A stretch of 64,000 nt of DNA. It comes from an uncultured Planctomycetia bacterium. GTDB lineage: Bacteria > Omnitrophota > Gorgyraeia > Tantalellales > Tantalellaceae. A program made the translations under genes and the position numbers. Below the pieces are notes generated by a model that was not told the DNA's origin, did no database searches, and saw only the letters and a program-made list of their open reading frames with translations. The stretch lies in contig CAYPCX010000008.1 in NCBI GenBank assembly GCA_964409365.1, forward strand, positions 265-64,264, read 5' to 3'. Shown piece by piece: positions 3,727-54,000 of the stretch (its first letter is position 1; each line of letters starts with the position of its first letter).

Positions 3727-3767
3727 GCACTCCTCCTTAAAACAGTTAAACGATATGTTAGTGTCAT

Positions 3768-3799: not shown

Positions 3800-3836
3800 A
3801 GCGAGCGTAAGCGAGCGATGACACCTTGACACTCTC

Positions 3837-4520: not shown

Positions 4521-4532
4521 CTGCAACCTGAC

Positions 4533-6877: not shown

Positions 6878-6878
6878 T

Positions 6879-7332: not shown

Positions 7333-7353
7333 ATATCCTTTATTTATAGTGGT

Positions 7354-8154: not shown

Positions 8155-8185
8155 CGTCCTCCTCAACCTTACACGTGAGACCTGA

Positions 8186-10028: not shown

Positions 10029-10056
10029 TTGTGCTTTGTCATTTGTCATTAAAATT
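10029..10056 (-). repeat. Tandem heptamers ATGACAA x3-4 upstream of / overlapping the trpF start
   Basis: Plus strand tttgtcatttgtgctttgtcatttgtcatt. Confidence 0.8.
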
Positions 10057-11867: not shown

Positions 11868-11876
11868 GTTCCCCCG

Positions 11877-12446
11877 TCAATTTATCCCAATAAAGTTCCT
11901 GAGAAGGTTCATTCCTTCTTCCGTCAGTATGGACTCGGGATGGAACTGCACGCCCCATACGGGCCTGTTCACATGCTTCACTCCCATTATCTCTTCCTCG
12001 TCTTCCGTCCATGCCACCATCTTCAGCGGCTCCTTCAGCGATCCCGGCTCGATGATAAGCGAATGGTACCTCGTGGCCGTGAACGGTGACGGGACTCCCT
12101 TGAAAATACCTTCGCCGGTATGCGCCACCGGGCTCACCTTGCCGTGCATTATCCTTGACCCCCTTACGACCTTTGCCCCGTAAACTTCCGCTATACACTG
12201 GTGGCCCAGGCAAACACCGAGTATAGGCACCCTGTCGGCGAAGACCCGTATCACTTCTTTCGATATGCCGGCATCACCGGGCCTGCCGGGACCCGGCGAT
12301 ATGACTATTCTTTCAGGCGAAAGCTTCTCTATCTCTTTTAGGGTGATCTTGTCGTTGCGGTAGACCTCTAACCTTTCGCCAAGCTCTCCCAGATACTGGA
12401 CGAGGTTATACGTGAACGAATCGTAGTTGTCGATCACAAGTATCAT
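11877..12446 (-). CDS. trpG: Anthranilate synthase component II (glutamine amidotransferase)
   Basis: MILVIDNYDSFTYNLVQYLGELG...GVCLGHQCI...HPES, a class-I GATase triad. The start is at the internal ATG 12446, which overlaps the trpE stop (ATGA). The 54-codon upstream extension of the raw ORF lies inside trpE and was rejected. Confidence 0.85.
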   Translation of the reverse strand: MILVIDNYDSFTYNLVQYLGELGERLEVYRNDKITLKEIEKLSPERIVISPGPGRPGDAGISKEVIRVFADRVPILGVCLGHQCIAEVYGAKVVRGSRIMHGKVSPVAHTGEGIFKGVPSPFTATRYHSLIIEPGSLKEPLKMVAWTEDEEEIMGVKHVNRPVWGVQFHPESILTEEGMNLLRNFIGIN

Positions 12447-30000: not shown

Positions 30001-33000
30001 TGCGCTTCAATCGTGGATATCTGTTCGCCCTTGATGATGCGGAAAAGACCGGAACGGATAATCTCCCGGGCTTCTTCCCTGGTACATATTTTTCCAGCTA
30101 CAAGCCTCCCGGAAAACACCTCCCACAGGTCTTTTTGCCCGTCTCTGACGTACCTGGGCATCGGAAATTTACGTTCTTTGCCGGCTAACCCGTCGTCCTT
30201 CGCGAACGCAGGTTCAGACCTCGTGAGGTCTATATACCCCCTGAATTCAGCGAAAATGCTTCTGTAAAGTTTCGCGAAAAAGTCAGGTTCCGCCAAGCGC
30301 TCCTTACAGCCCTCTATGTCGATCAGAACATATTCCGCGAGATCGATCCTTTTCTCCGAAGCACCCGGATAGTTCTGTTCTAAAATGCCTTCGGTGCCTT
30401 CGACCCTGCTTATCTGACAAAGACCTTCCCGGCCCTCGACCTTGCTGATTCTGAGGTCCTTATCCACCTTGAAAACCTGTCCTATGGGCACAAAATTCAC
30501 ATGGAATTCGAATTTCGGGTCCAGCTCCGGACCTAATTCCTCTTTCGCCTGCTCAGTGATCACGCTAAGCGCTTTCATGATCTCCTGCTGTGTAGTACTA
30601 CTTTCGCGACGGTTTTTGTAATCTACGACAAAATCGATGTCTTTCGGCCATGGTTTCATGCATCCTTTAACAAAACTTCCGATAATATAGTATCGGCTGA
30701 TATCGCTTTCGCTCCTAAAAACATTTATCACCTGCTTGATATACGGATAAAGTTTCGTCAGGCATTCTGAAACATCTTCAAGGTATTCCTCGTGACTCTC
30801 ATTCGCCAACGGCCGGGTTTTTGCCATCGCTTTAACACGCGGGTCTATCCTGTCATAGTCGTAATGTTCCGTAACGAACCTCCAGGCAAGGAGGAACCTG
30901 GTAAGGAGACTCTCCCCGTAGGCCTCTTTCAGAAGCGCCTTCTCTTTCCCGAAATACCTGCCGGAGGCGAAACCTTCCGGACGGTCTACGGACCTGTCCT
31001 TTTCTTCCCCAAAGAACCGGTCTACCCTTGCCTTCAAGTCCTTCTGCCTTTCAAGAAGCGCTCTGTGGTCAGGCATATCGTTGAAGAGGATCACCAGGGC
31101 TTCTTCCAGCTTCCACAGGAACTTAAGCGACCAGCCCATATTGGTATGGGCGGCTTCATGGGAAAGCCTCTCATGGAGGAGCTGCGCGGCTACCTCTTTG
31201 TCTTCTACATCAAGAATGGTATCGATAAAATGCTTATCAAGAACGATGAACCTTCTGCCGGAACGGCTTGTGTATTTCGCGGCGTTCGAGGAAAGATCGG
31301 GATACAATACTATAACGGGCGGAGCCCTCAACGACGGAAAATGGGTATACACGAAATCCTTGATGACCGAAAGCAACCGCGCGATATAACCTGCCGGTTT
31401 AATCTTATTCGCGAGGTTCAAGAGTCCCGCCAGCTTTACGGCCTTTTCCCTTCTGGCCTTACTTCCCAGCGGTTTCCTCACCACATATTCGCCGCTTTCG
31501 TACCTTATCCCGGTACCGATCAAGCTTGATTCATCTATTGTCTCTACCGCCTCTCCGGCAGGATAGGAAACGATCGCATCTTCCTGCATATGCCTTGCCA
31601 TCTTTATGGACTCGTCCAGCGGAGCCAGGTCAACACCCTTTTCTCTTTCGAGCGCGGCCTTCATCTCACCGAGCAATCCTATCATCCTGTTCTTTAGTTC
31701 CCCCGCCCAGAACTTTCTGAGATACCCGGCGTGATCGATCGCCTGGTCCGTCCCGGCTGAGTCGCTTATCATCAATTTGCTTAAATTATCCAGAGCGGCC
31801 GGATCTGTTCCTTTCAAGCTTTTCTCATGTTCTTTCCCGATGGTGGAAAGAACTACAGCAAGAATGAACCGTCGCATGAACGCCTGCTTCCTGTCCGGGA
31901 AGCCCTGCGGGAAATTTTCATCCACATATTCCTGGAAAGCCTTATAAAAACGTGCTGACACTTTTCCCTTCCAGGGACATTTCACCACTTCCGGCCCCGG
32001 CAACGCGCTCATCGGAAGATACCAGTTATCCAACGCCTCGTAAAGCTCGGCAACCTCCCCTAAAAACCGCTTGCCGGGTCCTTCTTTTTCGATCCCGATC
32101 AGCCTCGCGTAAAGAATATCAAAGAACAGGCGCTGGTTCTCCACGAGATTCATATCAATATACGGCGATCTGCCGAACCTTTTCTCCTCCTCGATCAGGT
32201 CCCTTACCCTGTTCATGTATCTTTTCCACATCGTCCTGCAATTGACGATACCCTTAAGATCAGCGGTCACGGGCTTTTCTTTTTCTACGATAGTAACGAC
32301 CCGTGCCATGCTCACCTGGTCGGCACTTATCTTCTCACCAGAGTTTTCCAGATCGTCGAGGAACAATCCGACAAGCTCGGACATCTTTGTCTTTTGAGCA
32401 ACGAGGGTAAAGGCCTCTTCCGCGGTCTGTTCCCCAAAAACCGGCTTATACGCGCGCCCGACCATTTCAGAAACAAAGGCCTCCTTTATCGCTTTAATAT
32501 CCCTTTCGCGGGTGTACGCCCGGTGATGCATCTTGGCATTCTCCAGCGAATAGGTGAAGTTCAAACCCGCCAGGTTGACTTCCTCCGACAGGAGAAGATC
32601 CATCATATCCCCGACCTTATCCTTTATCTCCCGGCGGCTGCGTTCCGGTCCATCGACGCAGGATATGGAATCAAAATCTATAGTGACAACAACGGGTTTG
32701 TCCCCTATTATCTCGGAATATCTCTTCTTCAGCTCATCTATCGTCGCGAAACTGTGGTCATATAGATACCCTTTGTCCTTGTCGGGATTGTTCTCGCTCC
32801 CGTATATCCATATTTTCCTGCCTTTCAGCAGATCCTCTTTAACCATAAAATACATCCAGTTCGCCGGGTTCAGCCATCTACCCGACCTGCAGTCATTATG
32901 AAAATCGATATTGATAACAGCCGCTTCCTCGGGCAGGGTCTTACCCGATTCGCGTTTGGCCCAGCAATAGAACATATCATGGTCGTTATGGACCATGACC

Positions 33001-36000
33001 GGTATCTCCCGGCCTTTTTTATTCTTCAGCGCGGTTATCCCGGAAAACTTTCCGGCTATCTTTTTGATCTTCGCCATCCTGTGCAGATACCATCCCCAAT
33101 AGATGAATAAGCCGAAAACAGCGGTCAGCACACTCCCCACTCCCCACACGGGATTCATGTTCAGGTAAACACCGCTATCAGACCTTTGTTTTGGCATACC
33201 CAGCGTGATCTTGCCCGAAAGGGCGCCTTCCTCATCCAGATACCGGTATTCCGGCGAAACCCGTTCTTTCCAGAATTCCTGGGCCGGTTCATCTTCGATC
33301 TTCACCTCATAATTTTTAACGCCTCTGGTCCGAAGATGATCTTCCACGCTCTCGACCAAAAAGGCGCCCAGCTGATCGCTTCCGTGAAGAAGCTCTGCAT
33401 ACAGACCATCCACGATAGCTTCATTTTCTTCTGTTCCCGCCGAGCTTGCGGAAAAGACCGAATAACGCAGGAAACCGACAGGTTTACCACCGGCAAGGGC
33501 GACAAAAAATCCGTTATCATCGGCATCAGGCTCCGCTCTTTCCATCCAATCGATATAATTCCTGCCGTTTTGCGCGACTCCTTCACTCATAAGGAATGCG
33601 GCGAATCCTTCCCTTTCCTCCTCGCTCAAACGGCTCGAATGTATAACCCGAGCGGTGTATTCCTGTCCCGATATATCTCTAAGCACACGCTTCCTATCCC
33701 GGATGGGCAGCGCGGTAGTGCCGTCTTCGTCCCGCGGCGCTCTTCTCCCGGGCATGAACGCGAAGCACAAAAGCGTATAGAGAACACCCAATAGCCCGGC
33801 CCCCGCCAGCACCTTTGCTAACACGTCGCTTGTCCCGATCAAGGATACACCCCCCGGGAACGGCAATATCGCGCCCAGGACTATCCCTGCCGCAACGGCC
33901 ACGGCAACCCACTTCATATCGAGCCCGGCGCCCCAGAAACGATTCATGCCCAGATAGAACCCGCCAGTATCCTCCTGCGCAACATTGGGACCTGATCCAT
34001 CTCTGACTTCTTCTATTTGCGCAACGTGCTTTTCAACAAGGGCTTCCATGGCTGCTTGCAATTCAAGCGTCCTTTTGTCAAGTATAAGCTTGTGCCCTCC
34101 CCGGTTCAGGATATATTCATCATCACGGCACTCCGTGCGCAGGTCCCGCTTTAAGAACTCTTCCAGTCCTTTGTTCTGTAAAAACCCGGTGAATTCATCA
34201 TAGAACTGCTCATAGATATCTGAAAGTGCTTCTTCTTTTGCGCTCTTTTTCCCCGTTTTAAGGTAAGCGAGCAAAGAGGTATGCAGAAGGTGAGTCATCC
34301 TCAAAGCCCCGCGGTGGCCTGACCTGTCAGACAGGACATTCCCCAGACCATATTCCGTTAGTTCGTCAAACGTTTCTTTTACCCCTTTAACGACATCCCA
34401 CGGGACCACATCCTTCTTTTGCCTGTACGCATATTGGTTCTTTTTCTCATTGAGCCGTTTATCGGATGCGGTCAGGAACCCTTCCGCCAGTGTTATCAAA
34501 TTCACGCCTTCTTCAAAAGCTTCCTTGGCCTCTTCCCTTCGGAATATGCCGGGTCTTGCCACGTTTATATGCAGGGGAAGCACTATATCGGCCCCTGTCG
34601 GAATTATCCCCAGGTCCTGCATGGTGTCTATCATCTCCGCCACGTCTTTCCAGTCCCTTGCCGGTTGCGGCGAAATTTCGAGTATCACCCGGTCCTCCAT
34701 GAACTCATGCTTGTCATCAGTCTCTATGTCGAGCAGCTTCATCAATGCCTTCGTGGCTTTCACGGGATACCCTTCGACCGAACGCTCGATCTCTATCTCA
34801 CAACCTATGGTCGGGAAATCCTCCAGGGCCTTTTCTCTTTCCAGGCACTCACTTATTCTTCCCCTCAAACACTCAACGACCTCTTCCGGCTCGGCGCGTT
34901 CTTTCCAGAGCATATGATAAGCTTTCAGTTTCAGGTTCGCGCCCGCGCCCCTTGATATCCCCATAAGGCCCTGATGTATATCGGCATCATCCAGCACGTC
35001 TTCAAATAACGCATGTAAAGCGGACCTGCCACCCGCCTCATACCCCTCTTCGGTGAAGACTTCCTCGACCGTCTGCATAAAGTCGGTCACCACGAACTTC
35101 TCATAAGCTTCATCCACGGTCATCTTCCTGCCGAAGAACGTGGAGAGAACGGTCATCCATATAAGGCGCAGCTTCCAGGAGAAGGCGGACCATGATCCTG
35201 AATTATACAGGCGTTCTATCTCATACAGTTCGAGGGCTTTCTCTTTATGGAAGTCCCAGGTGCGTTTCCCCCTTCCGGGGCCCCTTATGGCGGCCATGAT
35301 CCCGATAAAGCCCGGCTTCCTTTCCGAAAGGACTTCCCTGATATACTCACGTGTCTCGTCCCGTCCGGCTTCGTCCACGGGTAAGGGTCTGGGTCCGAAC
35401 ACCGCCATCTCGCCCTTGAACAGGTTGATGATCTGCGGGAATTCGTCGAGCCCACGGTCTCTCAGGAATTCGCCGTATTTCCTCACTTTCCCGTCACTGT
35501 CCATTGTCCTCAGCTTATAGCACCTGAACACCTTACCCTTGTGTCCGTACCTTTCCTGGACGAAGAAGAAGCCCTTCAACGTATCGATAGACTCGCGTAT
35601 GAACGCCAGAATCGAGAGAATAAGCGACTCCAGCGCCGCCTTAAGCGCATCAAGCCATAAGAAAGGCCGTTTTTCTTCAGGTGAATCCAGTGATTTCACG
35701 CCAAATTTCATGTTGTCTTTTCCGCGATAATCACGTCCTTCTTCCGATATGAACTTTTTCCAAAGATTCTGGGCGGCACCATTGCTTTCTACCCCGACGA
35801 AATACTCCCTCACTCCACGGCCCCTGAGATAATCTTCCAGACATTCGACCACAAACGTCCCTAAACCTTTCTCGCGATGTTCAAGTGCTACATATAAACT
35901 GTGGACGTGGGCCTCACTCGGGGAAAAGACCAGATACTTGATAATACCTGCCGGTTCTCCGTCGACCAACGCGATAAAGAATCCCTCACTGTCACTGACC

Positions 36001-39000
36001 CAGTCAAGGGACTTTCTCGCGATCTTCCGGGCGTTTTCTATATCCCCCTTGAAGATCACCTGGGACACCTTTTTCTCCTCCGCCATGAAATCAGCGACTT
36101 TATCTTTCTCTTCCGGCGTTAACTCGGTCGTGTGGGCCACGCGGGCCGTACACCTTTCCCCCGTCTTAGAAACAAGGACTCGCGTCCATTCCAGAACGGG
36201 CGCTTCGCCTTCCCTCGCTTCTTCTAACTCCAACGCGGGTTCGGACCCCTGTTTTTTAGAGCTGAGGGCAAGCCAGACCGACGCGCTGGTAAAAGCGGCG
36301 GCAAGAAAATACTGCCAGTAGAACGGCTCACAACCATAGAGGCAGGAAAACATGACCGCCAGGACGGGAAACAGCCCTATAACGGGAAAATACCGCGTAA
36401 GGTGGTAATCCTTGATGCTGAGTATCTTGGTATAGACCAGCCAGTTAGTAATATAGGCGACGGCGAAAAGCGGGAATGCCCAATGCAGGAAAAAAGTTCC
36501 ATGGGTCAAAAGAACCCCTATATCCGGCGCTAAAACAGTCTTCAATACAGGAGGCAGGAAACCGCCCGCGAGGGATAAAGATACCAGCGAGGTGAGGCTT
36601 CCCCAGCAGATCGCCCCCATTATATACATGGTCTGGGTTATCGCGGCGGGAAGATTCCGTAAAAGAGCCCTTTTCGTACTTTCTTCCATTTCCTGATCAT
36701 CGTGTACGCTATTGAACAGCTTCTTGATCAGGATGTTCCTCACGGCGTTGACCATAGAAGCCGCCACGACCAGTATGATGCCCGTAGCGCTCAAAGCGAG
36801 ATCTTTATCGGCTATATAAGTAAGCCACCAGATGCCCGCGATAATGCCGAAATTACCGGCAACTTTGCGTGAGGTGATCTTCTCGCCCAGGAACAGGGCG
36901 GCCAGGACCATCACGCCGATATGAGTGAGCTGTATCAGCACGGCGAAAGCGCCCGCCGAAATGAAGAGCAGCGAATAATTGCAGAGCATGGCGGCGGCGA
37001 ACTGGATCAGTATCCCGATAGTGACCATCTGGAGCCGCTGGGGCCAGCTGAGGGTCTTCCAGACCATCCTGAGCGAACCAAAGGGATCGAATATCTTTTT
37101 CGACTGCGGCTCGTCCTGGGAAAGATCGGGTGATCTATCATCTTCCAGGCGATAAAGGCCGGATGCCATAAGCATGCTGCCCAGGATAACGAAGCCGAAC
37201 GAGAAACCGATGGCCCAGGGGAAATACGAAGTGGTAAGGGCCAGCGGCTTACAGGTCCCTATCATGCCCTTAAGCAGGGGCAACACCGCCGCCACGACCG
37301 TTATGATGATAAATCCCATGGTGCGGGGATGGCCCACGAACCAGTCGCCGAGACGGTTCAAAAGAGGCGCCTCAAGACGGCGTTCGCCCGGAGTCGTGAC
37401 CTTTTTGAGCTTGAATTCACGCATGAGATACCTCGTCGCATCCAGGCACCTGCGGCCTGTCGCGACACTGACGGGCACCATCGGGCTCAGGGGATCATAC
37501 TCGTTCACACTGAGACCGAAACGCCTGTTCACCATGGAATAATCGTTGCCTCCCCTGTTCGCTTTATCCCCGACTGTCGCTATACGTCCTTCAGGAATAC
37601 CGAACCTTTCCCGCACAAAATCCACGGCATTCATCTTTTGAATATCCGCCTGGTCTATATCGATCGTTGAATGCGTCTCGACGACGTTCAGGTCGATACT
37701 GACCTTTGTTTCCAGATCCTCTCTGACAATAGCGCCCGCTTTCGCGACCTCTTCAGGATCCATATTTAGCGATATCCCGCCCCGCTTATGTTCGACCAGT
37801 GTGACCTCCGGAAAATCTTCAAAGCCGGTGAAATGCTTCGCAACTTCCTTCTGGACACCATGATCGAATTTGACATCGACACGGGACACTTCTTCTCTCT
37901 CCGGGTAAGATCCCGGATAACCGTTAACGGCGAAGCAGCCGTTCTCCGGCACGGCCCATAAAAGGCCGAGCGCGCTTTCGTCTATGCCACGTTCCTGTAG
38001 CCTCGCGCGTATTTTTTTGAACACGTCGTCCTCTATATCATTAATGCCGTTCTCTCTTAACTTGCCGGCATCGTTATTCTCGCTCAGGTTAAGCATCCGG
38101 CCGCTCGCCATCACGATCAATTTGCCTTCGCTTATACGGTCAACGATCCAGTCGATCACATCTTCCGGCATGTCACCGTTATCATCCGTCAAGACCCTGT
38201 CGATATCAAAAATAACGGCTTCATATTCTCTCGCGAGCGCTATTTTCAGCCGTATAAATGCCGCGACCTTTTCCGTGTACACGAACTGTGCCAGGTATGC
38301 CAAAGCGCCCCAGAGGTTCCTTCCCAGCCAGTTCTCTGATAAGAATCCGGGTATCGCAAATTCGAACCTTTCGTGGTTGGCGTATAAGGCTTGCAATAAA
38401 AGCGGTCGTCCTTTGAGTTCAGCTTTGTTGGCGTAGAGCGTGCCGTTCTCTACGTAGGTAAGGCGCTTTTCACTTTTCGGCGGGGCTTCAGCTTTTTCGA
38501 AGAAAGAAAGCAGATCCTCTTCCTCCGGCCCGGCCCTCAAAAGCCCCAGCTTAACGAACAGGGAATTTAAGGGGTGAACGACCAGCCAGTCTAGAAGTTC
38601 GGTAACAATTCCTTTTGTGTAGTAGAGGTCCGATGTCTGATAAAGGTAAGCAAGCGCGAACAAAGTCGGTATGTTCAAAAGAAGCACCCCACCCGTCCCG
38701 CACAGGCCCGCAAAACCGGCTACAAGTGACACCGCCAGCGGGACCGTAAATACACCCGCGGCTCCCCACGCACCCTGCCAGGAGACGGGCTGTATCCCGC
38801 GCTTCTTTTCGAAAGTTGTTTTCCAAAAAAGTATCGTTTTCCTCTCCTTGCCCACAAATTTCGCGTACTTCAGATTACACAAAGACTTTAACGTGTCCAT
38901 AAAAGCTTCCCACCTGAAAGATCCCAGGGATTTCACCACGCCTTCATACAACTCCTCTACGTCCAACTTTTTATTCATCATTCCGGGGTTTGCCTCGAAA

Positions 39001-42000
39001 AAGGCCAAAATTTCTTCCCTGTTCTGCCTGAGGGCCTCACGATACTCATCCATCTCTTGCATGTAAGAAGGGTCTCTTTTTTTCGCGGGCCGAAAACCAT
39101 CATCATTCCCGGACCGCCCCCCTCTGCTTTCGCCGTCATCGTCCCGCCCAATACTCGACGTTGATGTTCCGAGGATGGTCTTTCTATGCAGCGGGAACAG
39201 CGTATAGTAGACCCCCTTCCAGAACGCCGTCATGCAGAACTGCAGGCCCGTTAAACGGGCGAAGTTCGCGTTGATCTCATCCAGCACCGCCAGACGGAGG
39301 GCATGAGTACGCGGCAGAACGGACATCACGGCCAGATCTATCATAAAATATATCAGCGACGCGAAGGCTGTTACGGCGAGCAGCAGCAAAGCGCCGTTGG
39401 CCACACTATACATGGCAGAGTGCAAAAATCTTGTTATAGCGGTACCTTCTTTAAGCTCCCCGGCCGTAAAAAGACCCGGCTTGTCGCGAAATAGACCGGT
39501 TATGACCTCCCCGCCGGTCATCTTCAATTGCGTGTCGGGGTCCGCGACCGCGCTGTAACCGAACCTGTCTTCATCATCGGTTACGGCCTCGCCCTTTGCG
39601 TGCCCGCACATGTATGTCAGGAAAAGTTTCTTTTTCGCGGGCGCGGAGAACATGACCGAACTGACTTCATCTTCCGTCATGATACCGTCGGTAGCCTGCC
39701 ATGCCTTCCAACTGCCGTGCCCCATGACAATGATGCGTTCAACTTCGGGTTCGCGGAGCGCCGTCTTCAGGTCGTCCTTTGTCGCGTCCGGGACGACGTC
39801 AAGCTGGTACCCTTTAAACCACCAGTAAGGCCTTAATATCGCGGCGATCGAGATGAAGTCCTCTCGCGTCACCCTTTTGTCGGCGCTGCTCACAAGGACG
39901 GTGATCCTCTTATTTCTTTTAAAAGGACCGGGGTTTAACTCGAGTTTTCCCAGCACGGACATGATGATCCCGGCGACCTTCGTTATGATCAGCCCGCCGA
40001 TAAGCCACGTGACGACGTGGTATGTAAGGAAATGCACACCGAGCGCCGCGACCATCGCTAAACCTAAGAATGACACGATCGTCTTCCACCCGAACTGCTG
40101 GAACGCGCCGGCTCCCATGCCGAGATACACTGACCCGGCGGTATCTTTACTGGCCCCCTCCTCTCGTTTGTCTTCTTCTTCGGCTTGAGGAGCATGAGTA
40201 ACTTTTACGATACCACAATCGCTTCCTTCAAAAGACTCTGGTTTTTCAAAACTGGCGTTAAGCCCATGCGTTGCTGCCAACTCATTAAAAAGATCCTTAT
40301 ATTCATCAGTGAATGGTATGGTAACTACGGCCTGGCCGCCGTTTGCCAGATAACTGCTGACTTCGTTCATAAAGCGGCGGAAAAGACCTTTATCCTCGAG
40401 CCACGAATTAAAAATGATAAGATCGAATTTTTCTCCCTGTTCGATCGGTTCGAACAGGTCACCCAGAAGACAGGTGACCTGCCCCGGTTTTATCAAACCT
40501 TTTCTTTCCGCTTCCAGGACATTTACAACAAGATTCGCATAAAAGAATTCCACTTTATCCGTAGCTACACATTCAGCCCAGGGCATATTTACCGCGCAGT
40601 TCAGTATCTGGACGCCGCTGGCCGAGCCGATATCAAGGATTTTTTGCGCTGATGGGTTTACTATGCCGGATTCTTCGGAAAGGATATACTTACGAAGAGG
40701 CACAGTGGTTCTTGCACCATCCGCGGGCCATGTATTAACAGTGCTCAATATTTCATGAGGCTCCCCGTTCCCGGGGAAGACAGCGGACACGTAACTTGCC
40801 GGAAATTCTGCTTCTTTCCCATCTCTAAATTTACATCTGACTTCGTGAGTATATCCTCCTTGTTCCTTTTCACGAATGTCATAAGATTCCACTTGTATCC
40901 CAATTCTGCCGCCGTCCTGCCGCTTGTCGGCCTCTTGCCCGAACTGCGCGAAGCCTTGTAACATCGTCAAAAACATGCCCTTTTCTTCCCGGGTCAATCC
41001 TCTTTCGGGGTCTAATATCTGCCGCTGGCCCTCCTCGGAAAGGAGTTCCTGAACCTGTTCCGGGGTCATCTCCCCGATCCCGAATTTGCGGTGAACATGA
41101 TCTAACATCTCATGTAAAGCGCCTCTTTCTCTTTCGCTCCATGTCCTCTCCCTGTAATGTACCTTGTAAGTTATAAGGGGATTGCGGCTATAGTAATCGT
41201 CGCTATCGTATCTTCTGTCAACCTCCTCCGAATCGACTATTTCTTTCGTCCGGTCATATTTGAATTCCATTATGTCATCGCACTCTACCAGCTCTTCTAT
41301 GACCTCCTCCCCGGTCACATACCTCTCTTCCAGCCGTTCCCTGGCCTCATCGGAACCGAGATAATAATCCCTTAACGGCAGCACCTTTATAAAGTCGGGG
41401 GCGGCGATGCCGCTTTCCCCACCCATCGGCAGTTCGAAGGTCGTTCCATACCGATCCTCTTCGACCTTTGCGAAACCAAGCCGGGGATATAGATCCTCGA
41501 CCAGGGAATTCCTTTCTCCTTTTTTATAACTGCCGCGGATCCTGACCGTATCCGGACTGCTCCTTTTAATGTCATCCAGAACATACGCGAGAAACGCTTT
41601 TTCCGTTTCCAGGCCGATCGCCCTGCAGCTCAGGCAGAAACTGTGTATGACCGCTTCCCTTTCCATCCTGCTGTAAGACTCGGGATGTAATCTGTGGGAA
41701 TAGGCCACGATAACCCCTACCACTCCGTTATTGCCGAATTTATCTATTAACTCTAACGAATAGATATAGCTTGAATATCCTTCGTGTCTGATAAAAGCCT
41801 CTATTTCTTCCTGTGAAAGACGGTAAAGCGTCGGATTGAACTGATTTGTCCTTTGGGTCAACTGCGCCAACCTTGACGCAAAACCTAGATTTTCAGTCCC
41901 TCTCCGTATTACCGCCACCATTTCCAACGAGCGATAGAAATCCTCCAGGGACCTCGATAGCCGTCTGAGCTCCTCTCTCTGTTCCCTTGCCTTGACCAGT

Positions 42001-45000
42001 TCCGTTCTCCTTTTGTCCTCTCCGGTAACGGCTTCTTTCGCGAAAGCTACGTCCAGTCTTTCGTTCAATCCCGGTATTTCTCCGGCACTTCCGGTAAACT
42101 CCAGGACCGCCACCTGCGGCAATGCGCTGCTCACCAATTCCCTCTCCTGTGGCCTGTCATCAACAAAAACAAAGGCGTTCAATCCGATATCTAATGCCTG
42201 GGCTATTTCCTGTAAATTCGTCGCCTTGTCCTGCCAGTTAGCCTTGATCACGGCGAAGTCATCTTTTTCCAATACCATGCCGGGAAGACTTTCCAGAGCT
42301 TTCTCAACGTCTTTGAGTTCGTTCTTGCTGCTTATCGCCAGGATCACACCCCTCTCCTTCAGTTCCTTCACTTTTCTCTGAAGGTCCGCGTGCGGGGCGG
42401 TCACTTCGATACCGGTGAGACCGTCCTCACCCACGACCCCTTTCCAGAGCACCCCGTCGCAGTCCAGAACAAGGCATTTCTTGAGCGCGTTCGCGTCGTA
42501 TGCCCTGATCACATGGAGAATATCGCCTCTTATTGCCCCGATACGCGGCAGGTCCAGGCGGGTAGCTTTCCCGTCTTCAAAGAGCTTCTTCAGTTCTGCG
42601 AAAGCCGAGAGAACATTCGATGTTTTTCCGCACTCCATATTGTCGTCGTCGCGCCATGACCAATTAGCCCTGCCGGCGATAGCCGACAAATGGACCAGAT
42701 CATCGCGGACGATCATCCCGGCCGCGAACATCTCCTGCATTATTTCGAACGTGCCGTTAACCTCCCCCCACTCATAATCATATCCGTAACCGCCATGGCT
42801 CCACTGTAATGCCGCATCTCCTATACGGATCAACCCGGGCACATCAGCCGCCTCTACATGACCCTCGCGTAACAACTCTCCGGTTATGACGGAAGCTTCC
42901 CGTGTCAACTTCTCTTTCACTTTTTGCAGCGCGTTCTCTGCCTCTTGCCGTTTGTCGGCCTCTTCGGCTCTGGCGGCTTCTCCAAGAAATTCGTCAAAAG
43001 TGCCGATCTGTCGCACTAACACCTCAGGAGCTGTACAGCTTATGTCGATATAGTAAATATCGAAATAGCGCGCGCAGGTATTTATTTTATAAGCCGCCTG
43101 CTCTTCTAAAGCGGCATCCGGGTGTTCCTCTTCCCACGCAGAGATCTTCGCGTGCGCTTCGTCTACATCGCTGCCTTCTTTTAGCCTGTACAAAAGGCCG
43201 CGCCCTTTCTCGTTGAGGATAATATCCGAGGCGACATATCCCGATGCTTTCGACCGCTTCATGACCAGGATATCCCTGGAACTGATACGTAATCCCATCA
43301 AGCCGCCGGGATGGGCGTGGAATGACGTAGCCATTTTCCCCCGCATTTCCGGATGATCCAAAAATTCCGACAGACAGCCTAATCTGTGCAAATTCCCTTC
43401 GTCGTCAAAAATGACGGATCTTGTGCTGCCGCGGGATACTCTCCATCCTTCATCCTCGTCCATATGTATGTATCCCGATGCTTCGAGTTGGCATATATCC
43501 GTTTCACTGCTTTCCGCCTGCGGCGACAGTTCTGTCAACGACAGGCCCGTCCGCTCTTTAGTGAAGAATTCTTTCAAGGTTAACTTTTCTATGCCACACC
43601 TTACGGTGGTATCTTCCAGCCTATACGCACCACCGGCGCCGGGTTTCTCTTCCGAGCGGACTCTGTGTTGCCTTCCCTTGAACTTTAAATATGGGCTTCC
43701 TTCCTCAGGATACTTCAACACCCCTACCGGCGCGTTCTTCTCTGAACCGACAAAGAATTCTATAATGTCACCGGGATTCAGGTAAGCACCCGTAGCAAGC
43801 GTCTCTAACAACGGATCTCTTATCTCTTCCAGCATCCCTTTCAAATTTTTCATATATAAAGCTGAAGATATCCCGCCCGAGAAAACCGTTTCATCTTCGA
43901 TCCCGCCCCCGTCCAGCCGCTTGTTGTCTTTCTGTTCGAGATCCTCCACACCCGTTCTATTTCCGGCTTTATCTATGCGCCATACCCCTTCGGGCCTGAT
44001 CTCGTAAAGGTGGCCGTACTTGAAGACCTGCTCTTTGTCATCCCATACATAAGGCGGAACTACCGAGTAGATCCTTTCTCCCTTGTCTCTCTCTTTCTGT
44101 AGTTCACGTGTGAATGTTTCGCGAATGCGGTTTATATCTTTACCCTGGCCATGATAATCAGGCATTAAAATATCTACATCCGTCTCTTTGGCCTCCGATG
44201 CTCCCTCCATGATATATGGGGCGCGATATTGCCGTTCCCTCCCGATCACCGACGAACCGATCAGATAGACCGGCGGGACCCTTGAAGGCGGGATCCCCTC
44301 TTTCTTTACGTTTTCGGCGGTAGTTACCATCATCCCGTGCAGGGTAAGCAATAAAGACCTGTTCGCCTCTTTCGGCTTTGATACATCCCGAGACGGTTTC
44401 AGTGCTGACAATACGTCCCGGAATAATTCGACCAGTAATGACAATATACCGAGGAACGATGATTCCGGAACTTGCGCATTGTGGGTCAACGCCCCTTCCG
44501 CTAAGACGTCCTGTCTTTCTTCTCCGATATCGCCTGCCTTATCCTTTATGAAGTTAATGAACGGCCACGGATCATTCCTTTTAAAACTGAGAGCACTGTA
44601 TTTGCCGTACCATTCGTCCTTGTAACCGACCTCCGGCAGGCCTTCACGGGCGCGGATCCTGTTCATGATCTCCCAACCCGTCCTGTGGTTGGCATCCTCG
44701 AACGGATGCAAAGTAAAAAAGGCCAGGTGAGCCGCCGCCGCGAAGTTGGCCGGCTCTTCCAGTTGGACCCCTCTTTGATTGAAAAGTTCTACCATGCCGG
44801 CAAAGAAGCCGAATTGACGCGCCTTCGCGCGTTGTTCCGGAGCGCTGTTGATCCAGTCGACAAACTCCCGTCTCAAAATAGCCATTATTTCCACACCTTC
44901 GATAAGCATCCACCTTATACTATCCCCCGCGAAAAACGGGAATATTGTCCAGGTCCGGTACATCGCAACGGGCCTGTCCCTCAAGCCGGGAAGCCCCTCA

Positions 45001-48000
45001 TTTATCGCCTTTATGCTGCCTTCGGTAAACCTGGCCGGTCCCGCAGCCGCGCTATCCGCGTGCCGGACAGCAGCAGGTTCCGAGACTTCAAGGCCGTATT
45101 TATCTATAAGTTCCCGAACAAGTTTCTCCTGGTTTCTGGTAAGTTTTTCCGCATCAACCGCAGTATACTTATCCTTCACCAGCATCCCTGCTTCCGCCAA
45201 AGTGTGTTTCGCTCTTTCCCGGGGCATATACAAAGACATTTCCCTGCCCCCTTCGGTCAACTTTCTCATGCAAAAAGCAAGCAACTGGTGCCCCAGACCG
45301 ATGAACTCTCTTTCCCCTTCAAACTCATTCCTGTTCCATGGAGCTAGCTCTCTTCTTTTTAATTCATGCTTTTCGGCATCGTAAAAAGCAATGGCCTGGA
45401 TCTGGCCGTCATCCGACACGACATAATAACAGCTAAGATCGTTGCCACTTCGCAGGTTTGTATTGATGTTTACTATTCTCTGATACTCAGGATACCCGCG
45501 TTTCCTAAAACTTCTATCCACAGCTTCAACAAAATCAGGGTCATTAATATTTTCGGCATGAAAAACACGAAGGGCCTTTATCTTCTTTACCCTGTTGTCC
45601 AACACAAATAACTTGTCTTCCTCTGCCGCGTGCCGGGCCTGGGCCTGTTTCATCGCCTTCTCCGCAATATCTCTCGCGGTGGCTTCATCGCTGAGCTTTT
45701 TCGCTCTGTCCATCTCTTCTTTAGCGAGGTACATCGTCCCGCGGCCGGATGCCTTTTTCGGCTTCTTCCTACCGTCACTTGAGGACGTTCCCTTTCGGGA
45801 CACTACAAAAGAAAGTTCTTCCGGCTTAATAGAGCGTTTCTTCACCACACAGATGCTATAACCAAGTGGTCGAGGAACAGAGGAAACCAGATCGAACCCG
45901 CAGGTACGCAACATCCCGCTAAAACCTGTCCTATCCCATTCAATGCCCTGTCGCAGGCTATTCAGGGTACGCTGATTATTGAGGGTAAATGCCAATTTTA
46001 CACCGCATGGCATCACACCGCTTATGAGCATATGAAGGCGCTGGTAAAGTAGTTCCGAAGAGAACGGTTTGGTATTCTCAAAACAACCCCTCAAATAAGC
46101 CTCCCTATCTTCTTGTCTAACAAGCTTTTGGGACTCATCGCTTATAACGCGTAGTTGCTCTTCTATTAAAAGAGAATCCATATTGCGTATAGCCAGGTCG
46201 AACGTACCGTGGTAACTATCTATTAATTGAGAATAGTTGTGTGGTCCGGACTCACCCCTAACGAGTTCTCTTCTCAGTTTGGCATAATTGTTGATCGCGC
46301 CACAATCTACCGTAAATTCGGTTCCGGAATAATCAGATGAGATATTGCATTTATCCAAAATACCCGCCAATTTCCGGAAACCGTCCTTATCCTGATACCA
46401 TATCAGGAAGTCCAACCCGTTTTCTCCGGACCTTACCTCTATCGCATAGATCTCTCCGCTCAGGCCCATGATCTCCAGACCGTTCAGTTTCAGTAGGTCT
46501 TCATCCTTGAAGTCTAATGGATCCCTTTCCTGCAACCGAACGGTCTCTTGAAGGAACCGATCCGTCCCGGCGGAATCGTGTTCGCCTTTGATCGCTTCGA
46601 TCACCGGCGTCATGACCTTTATATAATTCGCGGTAAGGCTCGCGCTTACGGCTATCGAATCACTCAGCGCTCTTTCTTCCCCCTCTGAGATCTGCAGGTC
46701 CTTAAGATCTATGGAATTTATTTTTTCCATTAGAGCTTCAAGTGAAACGGCAAAATCGTACGCATTAAGAATATCCTTTTTGTAATCATCCAATGTAGGC
46801 GTTTCATCGACCTCATCCCGGAACATCAGGATGCTCTGCCAATATTTATATAAGGAGCCTTCGGCGGGATACTGCTCCCTTCTCAATGCGTCAAACTCGT
46901 CGACATATCCGGAAAATGATCTTACCGTTTCATTGTCTGCCGGCTCCTGAAGAAGGTTGAACTGTTTGGTGAACCAGTCTATGCCTGTCGTCCGGAACCT
47001 GAAACCGTCCGCGGACAGCCTTGCCATCGTATTCGCATCACCGATAGCAGCAAGCGCATTGTCACGGTAAGGGGAAGGGCCGTCCGCGCCGCGATCCAAG
47101 AAATACCAGCCTGATTCACATAACACCCTTCCTTCCTCGACCAGGCTATCAAGAAAGTTTTGTGCATCTTCTTCCGCTATACCCGCTCTTTCGCCGACCA
47201 CTACAAAATCTAAAACGGCAGGGGCAAGATCCAGGGTTTCGAGTATTTTCTGTTTATTCTCCTCTTCCCCTTCGCCTCCCTTCCTAATAAACGCCGTTCC
47301 TATTGCCATTCCTATTATTATGCCGAGCATTAGCAATAACCCGATCCCACTACTGAATCCAGCTGTCTTAATAATGCCGGGTGTTGCTGCTGGAAGCTGG
47401 GGACCGACCAAGGCAGATACACCAAAACCAGCGGCGATGCCGACACCCACGGCAACCAATATCCCGAGGACATCTTTGCCTTTCCCTCCGCGCTTTGGAT
47501 CGGTCTCTTTTTCACCCCTTGTTTCCGTGGCTTCTTTTTTCCGCTTTTGCATCGCCTCATTCAGCGCCTTCTCGTAAAGATCCGGCAAATATTTCTCCAT
47601 GTACTGTTTAGCCAAATCGCGTTGTTTTTTCTTCTCATCATCCTTTTTTTCTTCCTGATCTTTCCTGCGTGCTGCTTCCTGCTGCTTTTGCTTCACATCA
47701 GCCAATGCTCTCTTGTAAACACTCGAACCCGGATACGCTTCCTTTAAATATCGTTCGGCTACTTCGTGCCGTTTTCTATCATCCGTCCCTTTTTTCCGTG
47801 CCGCCATACCGAATACAACAAACAGAGCCGTCGCAACAACGGGCCATTGAGAGCTAAGCCAGGCGGAAAGCCGGGCGGAACCGCCGGATAGGCCGAGTAC
47901 CCCAAAAACAGCCTTTAAGACGGCTTTCACCATATCGCCAAGGGGGCCTGACACAAGCATTATGATAAAACCGGTTACGAGCACCGCTACGACAATATAG

Positions 48001-51000
48001 CCGAATTCCCTGCGGCCGAATTCACGTTTGAACGGCCCGGGTGTGATACTGTAAGACCTCGCAATGCGGCTCTCGGTTCCGGATGGGACGTCCTGCCTTT
48101 CACCGCTTCTTATGTCATCGGGCTGTAGTAGTGCGGGAGCTGGCGTCTTTGCCTTCTGCGGCGCGGGCGCCGGCGGACGGGCCAGGGCCGTCCGGCAAAA
48201 AGCCCCTATAGCCCTTTCGCCCAACTGCTTTAATCCGATACGTGTTTCGGCGATATGCATCCCGACCACGTTGCCCCGCGATATCCTCCTGGCGTTCTCC
48301 TGCAGTTCATCCTCCGACAACATGACATCCGTATCGAACGATACGAACACATTCTCGCCTTCGAGATCATCATCCATGACGTGCCGGGACATCCTTGTTT
48401 TCGACTTGAGCGCCATGAAAAGAGCAATGTTATTCCGGACCAGCTCTTCCCTGATATTTTCAAAAGTGGAAAATTTCTCGCCTTCTCTGGTCCTGTCTGA
48501 AAGATATTCGATCGCGCGGGCTATGCCTTTCTCCTGGTTTTCACCAAGCCCGCCCAGAAGGCCCAGGAACTCTTCCATGTCGAATCCTTCTATCCATTCA
48601 TCGATGAACCTGAAAAAGCCATCAAGGGGTTCCATCTGCGGAGAACCCGTTATGGACAACTCCCGGCCGGTCAAAATGCCCTTTGCAATTCCAAAAGGCC
48701 AGAATCCCGCGTCATCGAACCCGATTGAATGTGATTCCCCAGAACCTGATGAAGACTCCCTGGAACCAAAGTCTAAATGGTGATCCAGCGAAACGGCCCT
48801 GAGGGCGCCGCCTGCATATGCTTCCTTGAGGGCCTGGTAGAATGGAAGCGAAAACCGGTGCTGTTCCTCCAATAATACGGGAACGGCCCCTTCGCTGAGG
48901 GCCGTGTTAACGGCATGCCTGAAATAATCAAGCGCCGTTTCGTAACTCTGCGCCATCGCCCCCCTGTCGGGGGTGACTATTGAATGAATAACGGCGCCTT
49001 CCCCCAGAACCTGTCTTATCCTGTTCGACGGCATATTCCTGACAGAAAAGTTCATTACATAAAGCCGCGGGCGTTGGGCCCGGAATTTCGCCCGGTTCAG
49101 CTGTTCTTCGTCTTTCTCCGGGTCGGGGCTCACGGAGAGATCCCCGCCCCAACCGTATCCACGGGCTTCCCGTATCTTTGCTATGGTCTCCCTGGCCTTT
49201 TTCCGCGCCTCTTCCGGGGTCATTTTCGGTCCCGGTCTTTCGAATTCATCCAGGGACTTCCTGTATGATCCATCGAACCTCTCTTCTATTTCCTCCCTGG
49301 AGAATGATAAAATATCCTTAAGCGCTTTTACGTTCCCGTATCCTTTGCCGATGATCTCCTCTATATCCGTTCTTCCCGTATCGACAGGCCTGCCTACCTT
49401 TTCAAAAACTTCGAAATCCCCGACCAGTTTCAGTCTGATCCCGACCTCGGTCTTTATGAGGCGTATATTCGCTATGTGATGGTCGTAATGCATCCTTTTG
49501 TCACGGTCAAAATACTTGCACCTGTGGCCTACGTATCCGAGGTGGTGGATCGCCGCCGTGATCTCCGCGCTTTGATCTACGATCATCCCGTCCAGTTCCC
49601 CGCGGGTTATTCCCAGCTCTTTGACCAGGCCGTCAAGTATTGACGGCGAACAGAACTCGAGCCTTTTTCCGTCCTCATATTCAAAAGCCATGACGCACAA
49701 GGGGCTTTCGCGGTCAAAGACCTCTTTTTTGCCGTAAAGATCGTAAATACCGGCGGGGAACTTTTTGTCGAAAAGCGGCCTCATGCAATATTCCCTGTCC
49801 GGGAAAGCGCTTAATATGTCCGAAGCGATCGCGCGCCGCTTCTTTGTGAGCACTTTTTTCTTGTCCTCTTCTTTGCCGGGGATAACGACCTCGAATCGAA
49901 AGGCGATATTCCCTTTATCGTCTTTCCCGAAAATGACATGCCTGCGGAAAGACTCCGTTATCGGGCACATGAAAAGGTTGGAGCCTATTTTGACCGTCAG
50001 GCCCTCTTCCAGGGCATATTCAAGAGGCGCTCTCGGGTCTTTACTTGTCAATTCGAACGGAAATCTCTCCCTCAATGACGTTGCCAGCTTGAAGAATTTT
50101 CTCGCGTTAGTTTCATTCTCAAAAACGGCATCCCATGCCTGGGCAGGGGTGTTTATTTTCTTTGAGATATAAAGTTCTGAAGGGGCTTTTTTCCGTCCTT
50201 TGAAGAGAGCTGCGTGCGCTGCCAGCAAAGAAAGGAAAAGCAATGCGGAAACCGGACCAAAGCTGCCTTTCACCACCGGCGGGGCGAACGCGGGGTGGCT
50301 GAGCCAGCCGGAGACCTGGGCAAGCAATCCGGGAGCTACAACCGCCGCCAAGCAGATAGCGATACCCGCCAATACCACCAAAGCAACCCCGCCCACAAGA
50401 GTATTTCCCTGGTCTTTTGGTTTATTCTTTTTCTCTAATTTTTCTATTTTACGCAAGCAGGCCAGGGCGAATACGCGCACCGCTTCTACTTTCTCCTCTT
50501 CCGTTCCGGCTTCTTCGATCCGCGCGATCTCTTGCCCCAGTAAAGGCTTCACTACTAAGTCATCTATCTTTACGATTTCCCTAAGCGCCCTTGCGGCTGC
50601 CCTGTGTATATGAACGTTTTCATATGGTTCGATCGTTGGATCATCCGTGGTCAAAACATAAGACAGGATCTTCAACAAAAGACAACAGCTTTTCGATACT
50701 TTCCGTCGCTCTTCTTCGGGTTTAAGAGGATCTGACGCATCAAGCATGCGCTTTTCAAGCCTTATTAAAATATCATTTAACATCAAAACACGCGTACTGG
50801 CGTCTAACTTGAAGAATTGCACGAGGTGTTTATCGGCAACCAGGTCACCGGAATCTATCTCAGGCGTCTCGGGCTGTCCGGATCCCCCGACAGCCAGACC
50901 TAATAACGCGAACGACAGTATCCCAGCGAAACCACCAAAGCCCTTCAGGACCGGCGGGGCGAACGCGGGGTGGGCGGCGAGACCGGAAAGCTGGGGAAGC

Positions 51001-54000
51001 AGTCCGGCCACGGCAATAATAAGAACCCCTAAAATGACCACTGAAACAAGAACCGGTGTGAGCGCCGCCCCTTGCGCCCTGTTGTAGGAAACGGGCTGGA
51101 CCTCGACCAGTTCTTTATCTCTTTTCCCTTTCTGGTAGGTCACACCGATATGCCTTTGAGCTTCCCCGACCACATCATATCCGGGCTGGAACGCCCTCAG
51201 ATGCGGGCTTACCTTAAGAGCATCAAATACACTCAGGATCTCATCAGTGGTGGCGTTTAACATGGACGCAAGTACCCGGACGAGCGACTTGCGGTAATCT
51301 AACCCATTATCACGGATGGCACCCACAACCCTTCTTGCCAACTCTTGTCTGGGCGGAGGAAATTCTGCTAACGCGTTCTCGATAGCCCCTTCAACAGCTT
51401 CTTTGAACTCATTTTCCATAGCCGCTATCGGCGGTGATTCCGGCCTTTTGCTTGAAACCACCATACTGTATATTCCCCTCTCAGCTTCAATTTTGTGCGG
51501 GTAAACAGGAATGATCCCCGGCCACAACCGGACTACTTGGGCAGCCTTTTCCATTATGTTCAAGGGAACCTGGTAATCGCCTTTTTCCCAGTGGGACAGC
51601 GCGTTCTGTGAAACATGCTCACCATCTTCACTTAATCTTTCCGCAAATTCCGCATGGCTTAATTCCAGGCTCTTACGGAGCATCTTCAACCTCTCCCCCG
51701 CTTTGTCACGATACAGGCCTGCCACCATTTGCATGACACGCGGAGAAATCGAACGTATGCCGCGTTCCCAGCTGCATATTGTGATCTTCGGTATGATCTT
51801 TTCCGGATCCAGCTGTTCACCGAATTCCGCCAGATACAAGCCCAGCGCCATCCTGAACGCCCTCATCATTTTTCGTGACTGGTCCCGGTAGGTCATCTCT
51901 GTTTTATCCATGATCTCTAATGGGATCATATTCTTGCCGGTCTCCCAGCTGCTGACCGTTGTCGCAGGCACGGGGCTTTTTTCATTCAACAATTTCCCGA
52001 ACTCGTCCTGACTTAAGCCGAGCGCTTCGCGTAACACCCGCATCCTTTGCCCCGCTTCTACCCGGTAAACTTTTTCCGCGCTTTCCATGACCTCGAAAGG
52101 AATCTCAGTCATACCCTGTTCCATCCCCCCGACTTTGGGCACATCCATATAGCCTTCCTTGCTCAGCCGTTCTTCAAACTCTTCCTGAGATAACTTCAAC
52201 TTTTTACGGATCGTTTTCAATCTTTTCCCCGCCCGGCCACGGTAAAGCTTTTCCGCTTTCTCCATCATATCGAAAGGAACCGGGCTCTCACCCTTCTCCA
52301 GAGCCTTGATCTTTCTGTGATGCACCGGATACTTTTCATTCAGCAGCATCCAGAATTCTTCCTGAGTCATCCCTAACCCCACACGGAACCCTTTTAACCT
52401 TTTTCTCCCGCGTTCAAGATAGAATCTCTCCGCATCCTTCATGCGCTTGGAAGGAACGGTATATTCCCCGCGTTCCCATATGCCGAGGGTCCTCGGATGT
52501 ATGGGGTTTTTCTTGTCCAGTTCTTCTCCAAATTCTTCCCTGGTCAACCCAAGTTTTTCACGGAATTCCCTTAATCTTTTTCCCGCAAGGCCTGGGTAGA
52601 TCCTTTCCACGTTTTCCATCACTTCGAGCGGAACCGGGCAATTACCCTGCTCCCATAGCGACACCATGTCCAGAGATACATCTCTTTTGTCATCTAACAG
52701 TTTGCCTAATTCCCCCTGGCTCAACCCCAACATCAGCCGGATATCCCTTAATCTATTTCCTGCATGACCGCGATAGACTTTTTCCGCTTCCGTCATTATG
52801 TGTAAAGGAACACGGTTTTTGCCGTTTATCCACTGGCTGAATGTGCCGCCATAAACAGGATCTTTATCGCCCAATAACTTTGCAAATTGACCCTGATTTA
52901 AACCCGACCTTACCTGCAATATCTTTAGCCTTTTTCCCGCGCGATCGCGGTAAAACTTCTCTACCGCTTTCATGACAGCGAAAGGAATACTTCTTACACC
53001 GCTTTCCCATTTGATAACGGCGCCTACACGTACTGGCTTTCCGATATCCAGCTGCTTTGCAAATTCTTTCTGAGTCAAACCCAGGCTTTCCCGGAACGAG
53101 CTCAGCCTTTTCCCTGCCCGACCGCGGTAGAGCTTTTTCGCATCGTCCATCACGTCAAAGGGGATCTCGCTTTCACCGTTTTCCCAATCTCCTATCTTCC
53201 CCGGACCTATGGGATCTTTTTCGTCCAGCTGTTCCCCGAATTCTCTCCGGGTCAAACCCAGGCTTTCCCGGAACGTCCTCAGCCTTTTCCCGGCCCGATC
53301 ATGGTAGAGCTTTTGCGCGACTTCCATAATATGTAGAGGGACCGGATGCGTACCGTTCATCCATTTATAGAACGTACTCGGGTGTACAGGATCATTCTTG
53401 CGCAGCAGTTCCCGGAATTCTTCCACGGCTAAATCCAGTCTTTTCCGGATCGCCTGCAGTCTTTTGCCGGCAGTTTTCCCGGGAGATTCCTCTACTTCGC
53501 GCTGTGCCTGGAACATCACCCGGTCCAACAGTTCTTGGTCTTTCTTTGGGTCGGGACTTGCAACGAAATCCCCGCCCCGGCCAAATTCACGGGCTTCTTG
53601 TATTTTTGACCTGGTTTCTCTGGCTTTCTTTTGAGATTCATCCGAAGTCGTTCCCGTTTCTGGTGTAAGCGTGGCCCCTTGTGTCTTGCTCCTACCCCGA
53701 CTGACTGGCCTCTCAAAACGAAATATCGGTGTATCTTTCGGCCTCCTGGCGACAACATGGAGCCATCCGGCTTCCAGCGACTTCGTTCCATTTTTCTTCT
53801 CTTCTTTGATCTTTTCATCCAGAGACGAAAGCAGTATCTTCTGCAGGAACTTTTGCTGCTTCTTATCATCCAGTTTGCCCCAGATAAAAACGGTCACGTA
53901 GGGGTCGGAATAGAAATCTCTCATATCATCAAGGGGTATGCGAACCTTTTTCTTTTCAACCTCAATATCGGTAAAACCCGCCTGCCGGAGGGCTTCTCTA

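Follow-up and report, generated by a model that had tools for sequence, protein, structure and literature searches.

A conserved, membrane-flanked caspase/CHAT-like domain in a 13,300-residue mosaic protein from an Omnitrophota genome

Are consecutive domains of a giant bacterial protein steps of one pathway, and might such a protein carry the means to cut itself into pieces? Both questions are raised by a 64,000-nucleotide stretch of DNA (the window) from an uncultured Planctomycetia bacterium that GTDB places in the Omnitrophota (GenBank assembly GCA_964409365.1, contig CAYPCX010000008.1, positions 265 to 64,264 of the forward strand). An earlier note on this DNA had described, at 39450-42500, an FkbH-like domain, a second methyltransferase and a caspase/CHAT-like His-Cys module in series, and had suggested that the last of these could process its host protein. 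All three features are present there, on the minus strand, and the interval lies wholly within a single open reading frame (ORF) of 13,300 amino acids (aa). Residue i of this protein starts at nucleotide (nt) 63941-3(i-1), so that the interval encodes aa ~7147-8163. We refer to the three features, in order of translation, as modules 1, 2 and 3. The analyses below identify module 1 as an FkbH-type enzyme, module 2 as a methyltransferase-like domain and module 3 as a minimal domain whose modelled fold is that of clan CD cysteine peptidases. With moderate confidence, we propose that the three are independent of one another and that module 3 is a clan-CD-type cysteine peptidase whose likeliest substrates are its own or sister giant proteins.

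A conserved His-Cys pair in an uncatalogued family

The window copy of module 3 has no match in Pfam, NCBIfam or PADLOC, and searches of PDB sequences return noise alone (lectins and ribosomal uS7). A word-index protein search retrieves nothing with the module sequence and, with the family profile, one already known member. An exhaustive HMMER search identified 44 homologues, with E values down to 5e-33. The closer homologues are embedded in long proteins (6606, 6552, 4834, 1944 and 1391 aa), and more remote members stand alone, at ~210 aa, and have hydrophobic segments near the N terminus. Like the window copy, homologues have membrane helices on either side of the domain.

Two short motifs stand out in the alignment. 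The first, GHG (aa 8074-8076, nt 39714-39722), holds His8075, which is kept in 39 of the 45 aligned sequences; the second, xCG in the family and MCG here (aa 8111-8113, nt 39603-39611), holds Cys8112, kept in 41 of the 43 sequences that have a residue at this position. Conservation across homologues excludes a chance GHG...C pair, and the check that the earlier note had proposed for the pair, conservation among related proteins, thus came out in its favour. In a 40-sequence alignment, H76, G77, W82, K104, C113 and G114 (alignment numbering) are at least 90% conserved; in protein numbering, the near-invariant positions besides the His and the Cys are A8053, D8057, W8081, D8085 and K8103.

A clan CD fold without membership of a known peptidase family

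An AlphaFold model of module 3 built on the homologue alignment has a mean predicted local distance difference test score (pLDDT) of 88.3 and a predicted template modelling score (pTM) of 0.85. In this model the His directly follows strand 3 (70-74) and the Cys directly follows strand 4 (107-111), with a beta-hairpin and a helix between them. The best 50 Foldseek matches to the PDB are all caspases or SAVED-CHAT (E from 4.6e-5, template modelling scores 0.4-0.47), a library of viral structures returned viral caspases and clostripain, and clan CD peptidases rank first in three structure libraries. In one of these the top match is a SAVED-CHAT defence protease, and the glycosylphosphatidylinositol (GPI) transamidase comes seventh. 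Alignment of the family profile with human caspase-3 by hhalign, using a manually entered caspase-3 sequence, gave an E value of 1.8e-4 and placed GHG on SHG (His121) and xCG on QAC (Cys163).

These features are shared with clan CD at large, which includes the caspases (C14), the CHAT peptidases (SAVED-CHAT, TPR-CHAT/Csx29 and the anti-sigma factor DdvA), the gingipains (C25), and legumain and GPI8 (C13). Common to all are a three-layer alpha/beta caspase-hemoglobinase-like fold, a His directly after strand 3 in a (S/G)HG motif, a Cys directly after strand 4, and the intervening beta-hairpin and helix; His and Cys are 37 residues apart in module 3 and 42 in caspase-3. Module 3 differs from these peptidases in that it has no significant sequence match to the C14, CHAT, C25 or C13 profiles, is only ~165 aa long without a p10-like half, and lies between transmembrane helices. 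A Trp (W8081) and an Asp (D8085) downstream of the His are invariant and specific to its family, and a KK precedes strand 4.

At the level of sequence, neither Peptidase_C14 nor CHAT (PF12770) matches the window copy at E<=1. The Pfam families matched by more than one of 40 family members are solely Peptidase_C25 and CHAT, both sub-threshold and each in 2 of the 40 (best E 0.01 and 0.063, respectively). Peptidase_C80 does not match, and neither sequence nor structure comparison links module 3 to the cysteine protease domain (CPD) of MARTX and TcdA/B. Four standalone homologues have weak PADLOC matches to BovA, which we take to be a CHAT-domain defence protein, over the His region. The caspase/CHAT-like label of the earlier note therefore holds for the fold and the conserved pair, and the significant Peptidase_C14/CHAT profile match that it had also looked for is missing. 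Module 3 is caspase/CHAT-like by its modelled fold and catalytic pair, not by membership of a catalogued family. We conclude that it represents an uncatalogued family within the caspase/CHAT superfamily, minimal and flanked by membrane helices, in archaea and in bacterial giant proteins. Taken as a clan CD-like fold carrying a functional His-Cys pair, the module is very likely described correctly.

Proposed role of module 3

We propose that the three modules have independent evolutionary histories and belong to a giant mosaic protein tethered to the membrane, in which the caspase-hemoglobinase-fold domain would be held between membrane helices. Module 3 probably faces the cytoplasm, as do the adjacent cofactor-dependent enzymes; this orientation is suggested by the basic KRNKR after the preceding hairpin and by the neighbouring modules, which require cytosolic cofactors. 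The Cys8112 thiolate would attack a peptide bond, with His8075 acting as general base or acid. Most plausibly it may cut the linkers between modules, either in its own host or in sister giant proteins, and cleavage there would free membrane-anchored enzyme units. The protein's own linkers are the best candidates because module 3 is the sole peptidase-like domain detected across the 13,300 aa and each giant protein has a single copy, both the window protein, where no further copies were found, and the related giants of 6606 (P0001), 6552 and 4834 aa. Very long proteins also harbour most of the closest homologues. We regard an active peptidase as reasonably probable; that it processes its own giant protein is a narrower claim, which we consider rather unlikely.

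Several points weigh against this proposal. The topology after module 3 is ambiguous. No curated peptidase family matches significantly, the p10-like second half is lacking, and the hhalign probability against the manually entered caspase-3 sequence is just 49%. The His is replaced (GEG, GDG, GQG or GMG) or the Cys lost in some homologues (P0008, P0016, P0017, P0026 and P0043), so the fold can persist without catalysis. Standalone homologues of ~210 aa lie among archaeal genes, away from any giant protein, and self-processing of giants therefore cannot be the general role of the family. As to module 1, acyl carrier protein (ACP, PP-binding), ketosynthase (KS), acyltransferase (AT) and polyketide synthase (PKS) domains were not detected anywhere in the 13,300-aa protein at E<=0.01, and thus no ACP partner for the FkbH domain was found there.

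Some of these points would fit a caspase-fold domain that is not proteolytic, namely a pseudo-enzyme, a scaffold, or a domain whose Cys serves in thioester or acyl carrying or in redox chemistry. The homologues without His and/or Cys retain the fold signature, and the second half that is missing from this minimal domain is the one that builds the substrate pockets of caspases; the lack of a curated family match points the same way. However, no other polar residues are as well conserved as His and Cys (~90%), their positions at the ends of strands 3 and 4 are exactly those of the clan CD catalytic pair, and in relatives the module does not co-occur with FkbH or with an acyl-handling module. We therefore judge a non-proteolytic role improbable for the window copy, and the members without His or Cys are probably pseudo-enzymes within the family.

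Alternatively, module 3 may be an active clan-CD-type peptidase or transpeptidase that acts in trans, through regulatory or defensive cleavage as in CHAT proteins or membrane sorting and transamidation as in GPI transamidase, and that was shuffled into its present host without a role in processing it. The membrane-anchored standalone homologues, whose neighbours include archaeal housekeeping genes and a Ser/Thr kinase but no giant genes, are consistent with such a role, as are the ranks of SAVED-CHAT and GPI transamidase among the structural matches, the BovA matches and the free shuffling of modules among giant proteins (see below). Yet the clade nearest the window copy resides mostly in very long proteins, one copy in each, and no CHAT-typical sensor or partner domain (SAVED or TPR) was detected adjoining module 3. 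We consider this a possible but doubtful explanation. The preferred reading remains a peptidase directed at its own or sister giant proteins.

Comparison with known giant proteins and self-processing toxins

Giant multi-enzyme proteins have been described in Omnitrophota and other bacteria of the Planctomycetes-Verrucomicrobia-Chlamydiae (PVC) group (West-Roberts et al. 2023, bioRxiv 10.1101/2023.11.21.568195), also as 'multi-enzyme metabolic clusters' (bioRxiv 10.64898/2026.06.07.730766). Like these, the window protein combines many transmembrane segments with many unrelated enzyme Pfams tiled on one polypeptide, including methyltransferases and glycan-related enzymes. Whether giant genes yield one enormous protein or a processed set is explicitly an open question in that literature, and proteolytic maturation has been proposed through C39 and S8 peptidase domains (bioRxiv 10.1101/2023.11.21.568195; 10.64898/2026.06.07.730766). 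In contrast to the published giants, we detected neither C39 nor S8 in the 13,300-aa protein, and no SecA_DEAD; the nearest relative of its module 3 lies in a Planctomycetales metagenome-assembled genome (MAG). The words caspase and CHAT are absent from bioRxiv 10.64898/2026.06.07.730766. A conserved caspase-like domain that occurs once per protein and is missed by Pfam and NCBIfam offers a concrete handle on the polyprotein question. It also adds to the caspase/CHAT superfamily an uncatalogued, membrane-tethered minimal branch in archaea and bacteria.

The CPD (C80) of MARTX and large clostridial toxins autoprocesses its host protein at inter-module linkers. Module 3 resembles it by functional analogy alone, as one small clan CD domain in a very large multi-module protein. 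Here, in place of a secreted toxin, the host is a polytopic membrane protein encoded on the chromosome, and a switch operated by inositol hexakisphosphate (InsP6) is implausible. We speculate that the module 3 family might serve a class of giant mosaic membrane proteins, found in Planctomycetota and other PVC bacteria, as their dedicated maturation protease, and so be a chromosomal bacterial counterpart of the MARTX CPD. ORFs of 5,000-15,000 aa would then encode genuine polyproteins that are split on the cytoplasmic side into individual membrane-anchored enzymes, and the archaeal ~210-aa standalone form would be an ancestral membrane protease. In this broad form the idea is a long shot.

Module 1 is a complete FkbH domain

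The FkbH-type HAD-IIIC assignment made from the DCDGVLW motif (aa 7160-7166, nt ~42444-42464) is borne out, since this motif begins a full FkbH domain. A 400-aa segment from aa 7131 matches TIGR01686 (FkbH domain) with E 7e-78 and a score of 261.9 bits (trusted cutoff 146.65) over profile positions 3-320 of 323, which takes in the family-specific C-terminal half. TIGR01681 (HAD-IIIC) is matched with 68.4 bits (cutoff 35.75), and the HAD half matches the solved structure of BF1531 (PDB 3slr) with E 5.6e-29. HAD motifs I-IV are complete (D7160xD7162, SSKN 7204, ANWQDK 7234 and FVDD 7259) and are kept in five relatives. The C-terminal half carries RTNQFN 7364 and LSC7439R, and the cysteine of this SCR motif is invariant in 6/6 FkbH sequences. 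A six-sequence profile of the half, searched against the PDB, gave eight matches, all GNAT acetyltransferases and all weak (E 0.025-0.23); Pfam GNAT families do not match it, and an hhalign comparison with the giant protein's own GNAT domain was negative. We conclude that module 1 is a genuine enzyme of the FkbH type, with a HAD-IIIC phosphatase half and a second, putatively GNAT-like half that bears the conserved cysteine of the family.

Characterised FkbH proteins take the glyceryl moiety of a phosphorylated C3 acid and carry it as a thioester. With the family (FkbH of the FK520 cluster, OzmB and the uncharacterised BF1531 of Bacteroides fragilis) module 1 shares the full-length domain above the trusted cutoff, the four HAD motifs, the SCR cysteine and RTNQFN. 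It differs in its motif I, which is DCDG where DLDNT is usual, and in its position at residue 7154 of a 13,300-aa protein without ACP or PKS context. The polyketide or glyceryl-ACP setting suggested in the earlier note did not hold up: a PKS or tetronate context was rejected for lack of any ACP or KS domain, and the genes flanking the giant ORF are housekeeping genes. The in-protein neighbours downstream (a HAD phosphatase, EamA, GNATs and Bac_transf) suggest that this FkbH domain probably acts in glycan or envelope modification, not in polyketide synthesis.

Module 2 is a divergent methyltransferase-like domain

FkbH and methyltransferase are separated by a 270-aa linker that has no family match and no homologues in profile and protein searches. 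The second methyltransferase of the earlier note is recognizable as a class I S-adenosylmethionine (SAM) methyltransferase-like region that stays below every curated cutoff. Among the six Pfam methyltransferase families that match, Methyltransf_31 scores best (E 1.4e-5; 25.3 bits, cutoff 27), and the gathering threshold is reached for none of Methyltransf_31/23/25/11/12 and MTS. Eight NCBIfam methyltransferase models match with E 5e-8 to 1e-2; the best (E 5.3e-8) is of the HemK/PrmC type, and the scores against these N5-glutamine methyltransferases (27.8-32.5 bits) fall short of the cutoffs of 87-199. The best Pfam and NCBIfam E values nonetheless support homology to the class I fold. Motif I reads ILDIGSASG (aa 7768-7776), and the motif IV position has FNSW instead of NPPY. 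Comparison with the PDB gave a weak O-methyltransferase match, a protein search with linker and methyltransferase retrieved no homologues, and a single-sequence AlphaFold (AF2) model of aa 7700-7935 was unusable for fold comparison (pLDDT 48.8). By its sequence, module 2 is best described as a divergent class I SAM methyltransferase-like domain outside any specific family. In themselves, modules 1 and 2 are of familiar kinds; it is their host that is unusual.

Modules appear to be shuffled among giant proteins

Genome and metagenome locus searches retrieved no orthologue with the same three-module order, the former yielding one genome locus and the latter FkbH relatives only. Related giant proteins share with the window protein module 3 and its membrane flanks alone, and the metagenomic FkbH relatives share FkbH alone. 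At least two other metagenomic long ORFs likewise embed an FkbH domain, one of at least 2274 aa and the other of >7033 aa. In the latter (L009; Ga0172370_10000016, 1-21101) the whole 21-kb locus is one open frame that joins FkbH to glycosyltransferases, DUF1152 and an amino-acid kinase, and its product is another giant mosaic protein. The domains next to FkbH differ among relatives (an MTS methyltransferase, glycosyltransferases, an amino-acid kinase). Two module 3 giants, P0007 and P0011, each combine their single copy of the module with domains that include sugar-nucleotide enzymes, radical SAM, ATP-grasp and methyltransferases. Because relatives share single modules and differ in the neighbouring domains, the order FkbH, methyltransferase, caspase-like domain appears to be a product of module shuffling and not a conserved pathway, and a functional meaning of the series is not supported.

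The same evidence bears on the idea that the three modules form one pathway, in which FkbH would load a glyceryl unit, the methyltransferase would add a methyl group to it, as happens when methoxymalonyl-ACP is made, and the Cys module would carry or release the product. The order FkbH-then-methyltransferase does recall the FkbH/FkbG logic of methoxymalonate pathways, and one relative (L008) has an MTS-type methyltransferase ~300 aa from its FkbH. However, that methyltransferase lies upstream of FkbH, not downstream, and is dissimilar to module 2; the window protein lacks ACP, dehydrogenase and PKS domains; and module 3 giants have no FkbH alongside, nor FkbH giants a module 3. Since the modules do not co-occur in relatives, the pathway is largely refuted, and we regard it as very improbable.

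The closest module 3 homologue (P0001, 6606 aa) comes from a MAG labelled 'uncultured Planctomycetales bacterium' (L004 1-25821; GCA_964579435.1, contig CAZOGI010000005.1). Its gene is directly preceded by a called gene for 15,843 aa and followed by three small PilZ genes. The standalone ~210-aa homologues (L003, L015-L017, L002 and L014) adjoin archaeal genes (Hjc; TFIIB, ribosomal S17e and Alba) or a Ser/Thr kinase gene. One of them follows the kinase gene with overlapping stop and start codons.

Host protein and genomic setting

The ~35 hydrophobic segments of the giant protein occur mostly as hairpin-like pairs (Table 1). Between them lies a patchwork that includes, besides the three modules, a first methyltransferase, ~11 XRE-type helix-turn-helix (HTH) domains, arginase-fold, Fic, Cof-type HAD, EamA, two GNAT, Bac_transf and nucleotidyltransferase domains. 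Window positions 1-24000 encode, on the same strand, LepA, phosphoglucomutase, M50 and M16 peptidases, a trp operon, hisD and alanyl-tRNA synthetase; Rfam searches found no RNA genes in the window. These ordinary neighbours, and the presence of the LepA protein on a 162-kb metagenomic contig (ENA ERZ27256770), indicate a bacterial chromosome, not a mobile element.

Table 1. Features of the giant ORF and their coordinates in the window
Feature	Window position (nt)	Residues (aa)	Strand	Evidence or remark
Host gene	24039..63941	1-13,300	-	One ORF; mosaic of unrelated enzyme and HTH domains
XRE-type HTH array, ~11 tandem repeats	51522-53534	~3470-4140	-	Pfam HTH_31, HTH_3, weak Aca2_YdiL; period ~59 aa, 36-48% mutual identity
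Arginase/ureohydrolase-fold match, first	~48710-48960	~4995-5077	-	Weak, sub-threshold; E 2.5e-4
Fic/DOC core (PF02661)	44658-44807	6379-6428	-	E 1.6e-6, above cutoff
Module 1, FkbH domain	41469..42482	7154-7491	-	TIGR01686, TIGR01681, PDB 3slr, motifs
Linker	40659..41468	7492-7761	-	No family; start acidic and of low complexity
Module 2, divergent class I SAM-methyltransferase-like domain	40281..40658	~7762-7887	-	Pfam and NCBIfam, below cutoff
Tight transmembrane hairpin, then basic KRNKR	39939..40091	7951-8001	-	Between methyltransferase and module 3
Module 3, minimal caspase/CHAT-like (clan CD-like) domain	39444..39935	8003-8166	-	~165 aa
Putative catalytic His codon (GHG)	39717..39719	8075	-	After strand 3 of model; aligned to caspase-3 His121
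Putative nucleophile Cys codon (MCG)	39606..39608	8112	-	After strand 4 of model; aligned to caspase-3 Cys163
Hydrophobic segment after module 3	39336..39416	8176-8202	-	
Cof-type HAD (Hydrolase_3), EamA transporter, GNAT, Bac_transf phosphoglycosyl transferase	35139-37760	~8728-9601	-	
Arginase/ureohydrolase-fold match, second	~32660-33010	10312-10426	-	Weak, sub-threshold; E 4e-3
Nucleotidyltransferase (NTP_transf_2 / Pol-beta-like)	~30480-30740	11068-11152	-	C-terminal third of the protein

An array of DNA-binding domains within a polytopic membrane protein is odd. The block at 35139-37760, just downstream of the three modules, resembles a fused polysaccharide-synthesis locus, and its GNAT region is duplicated at aa 10079-10253 with 38% identity.

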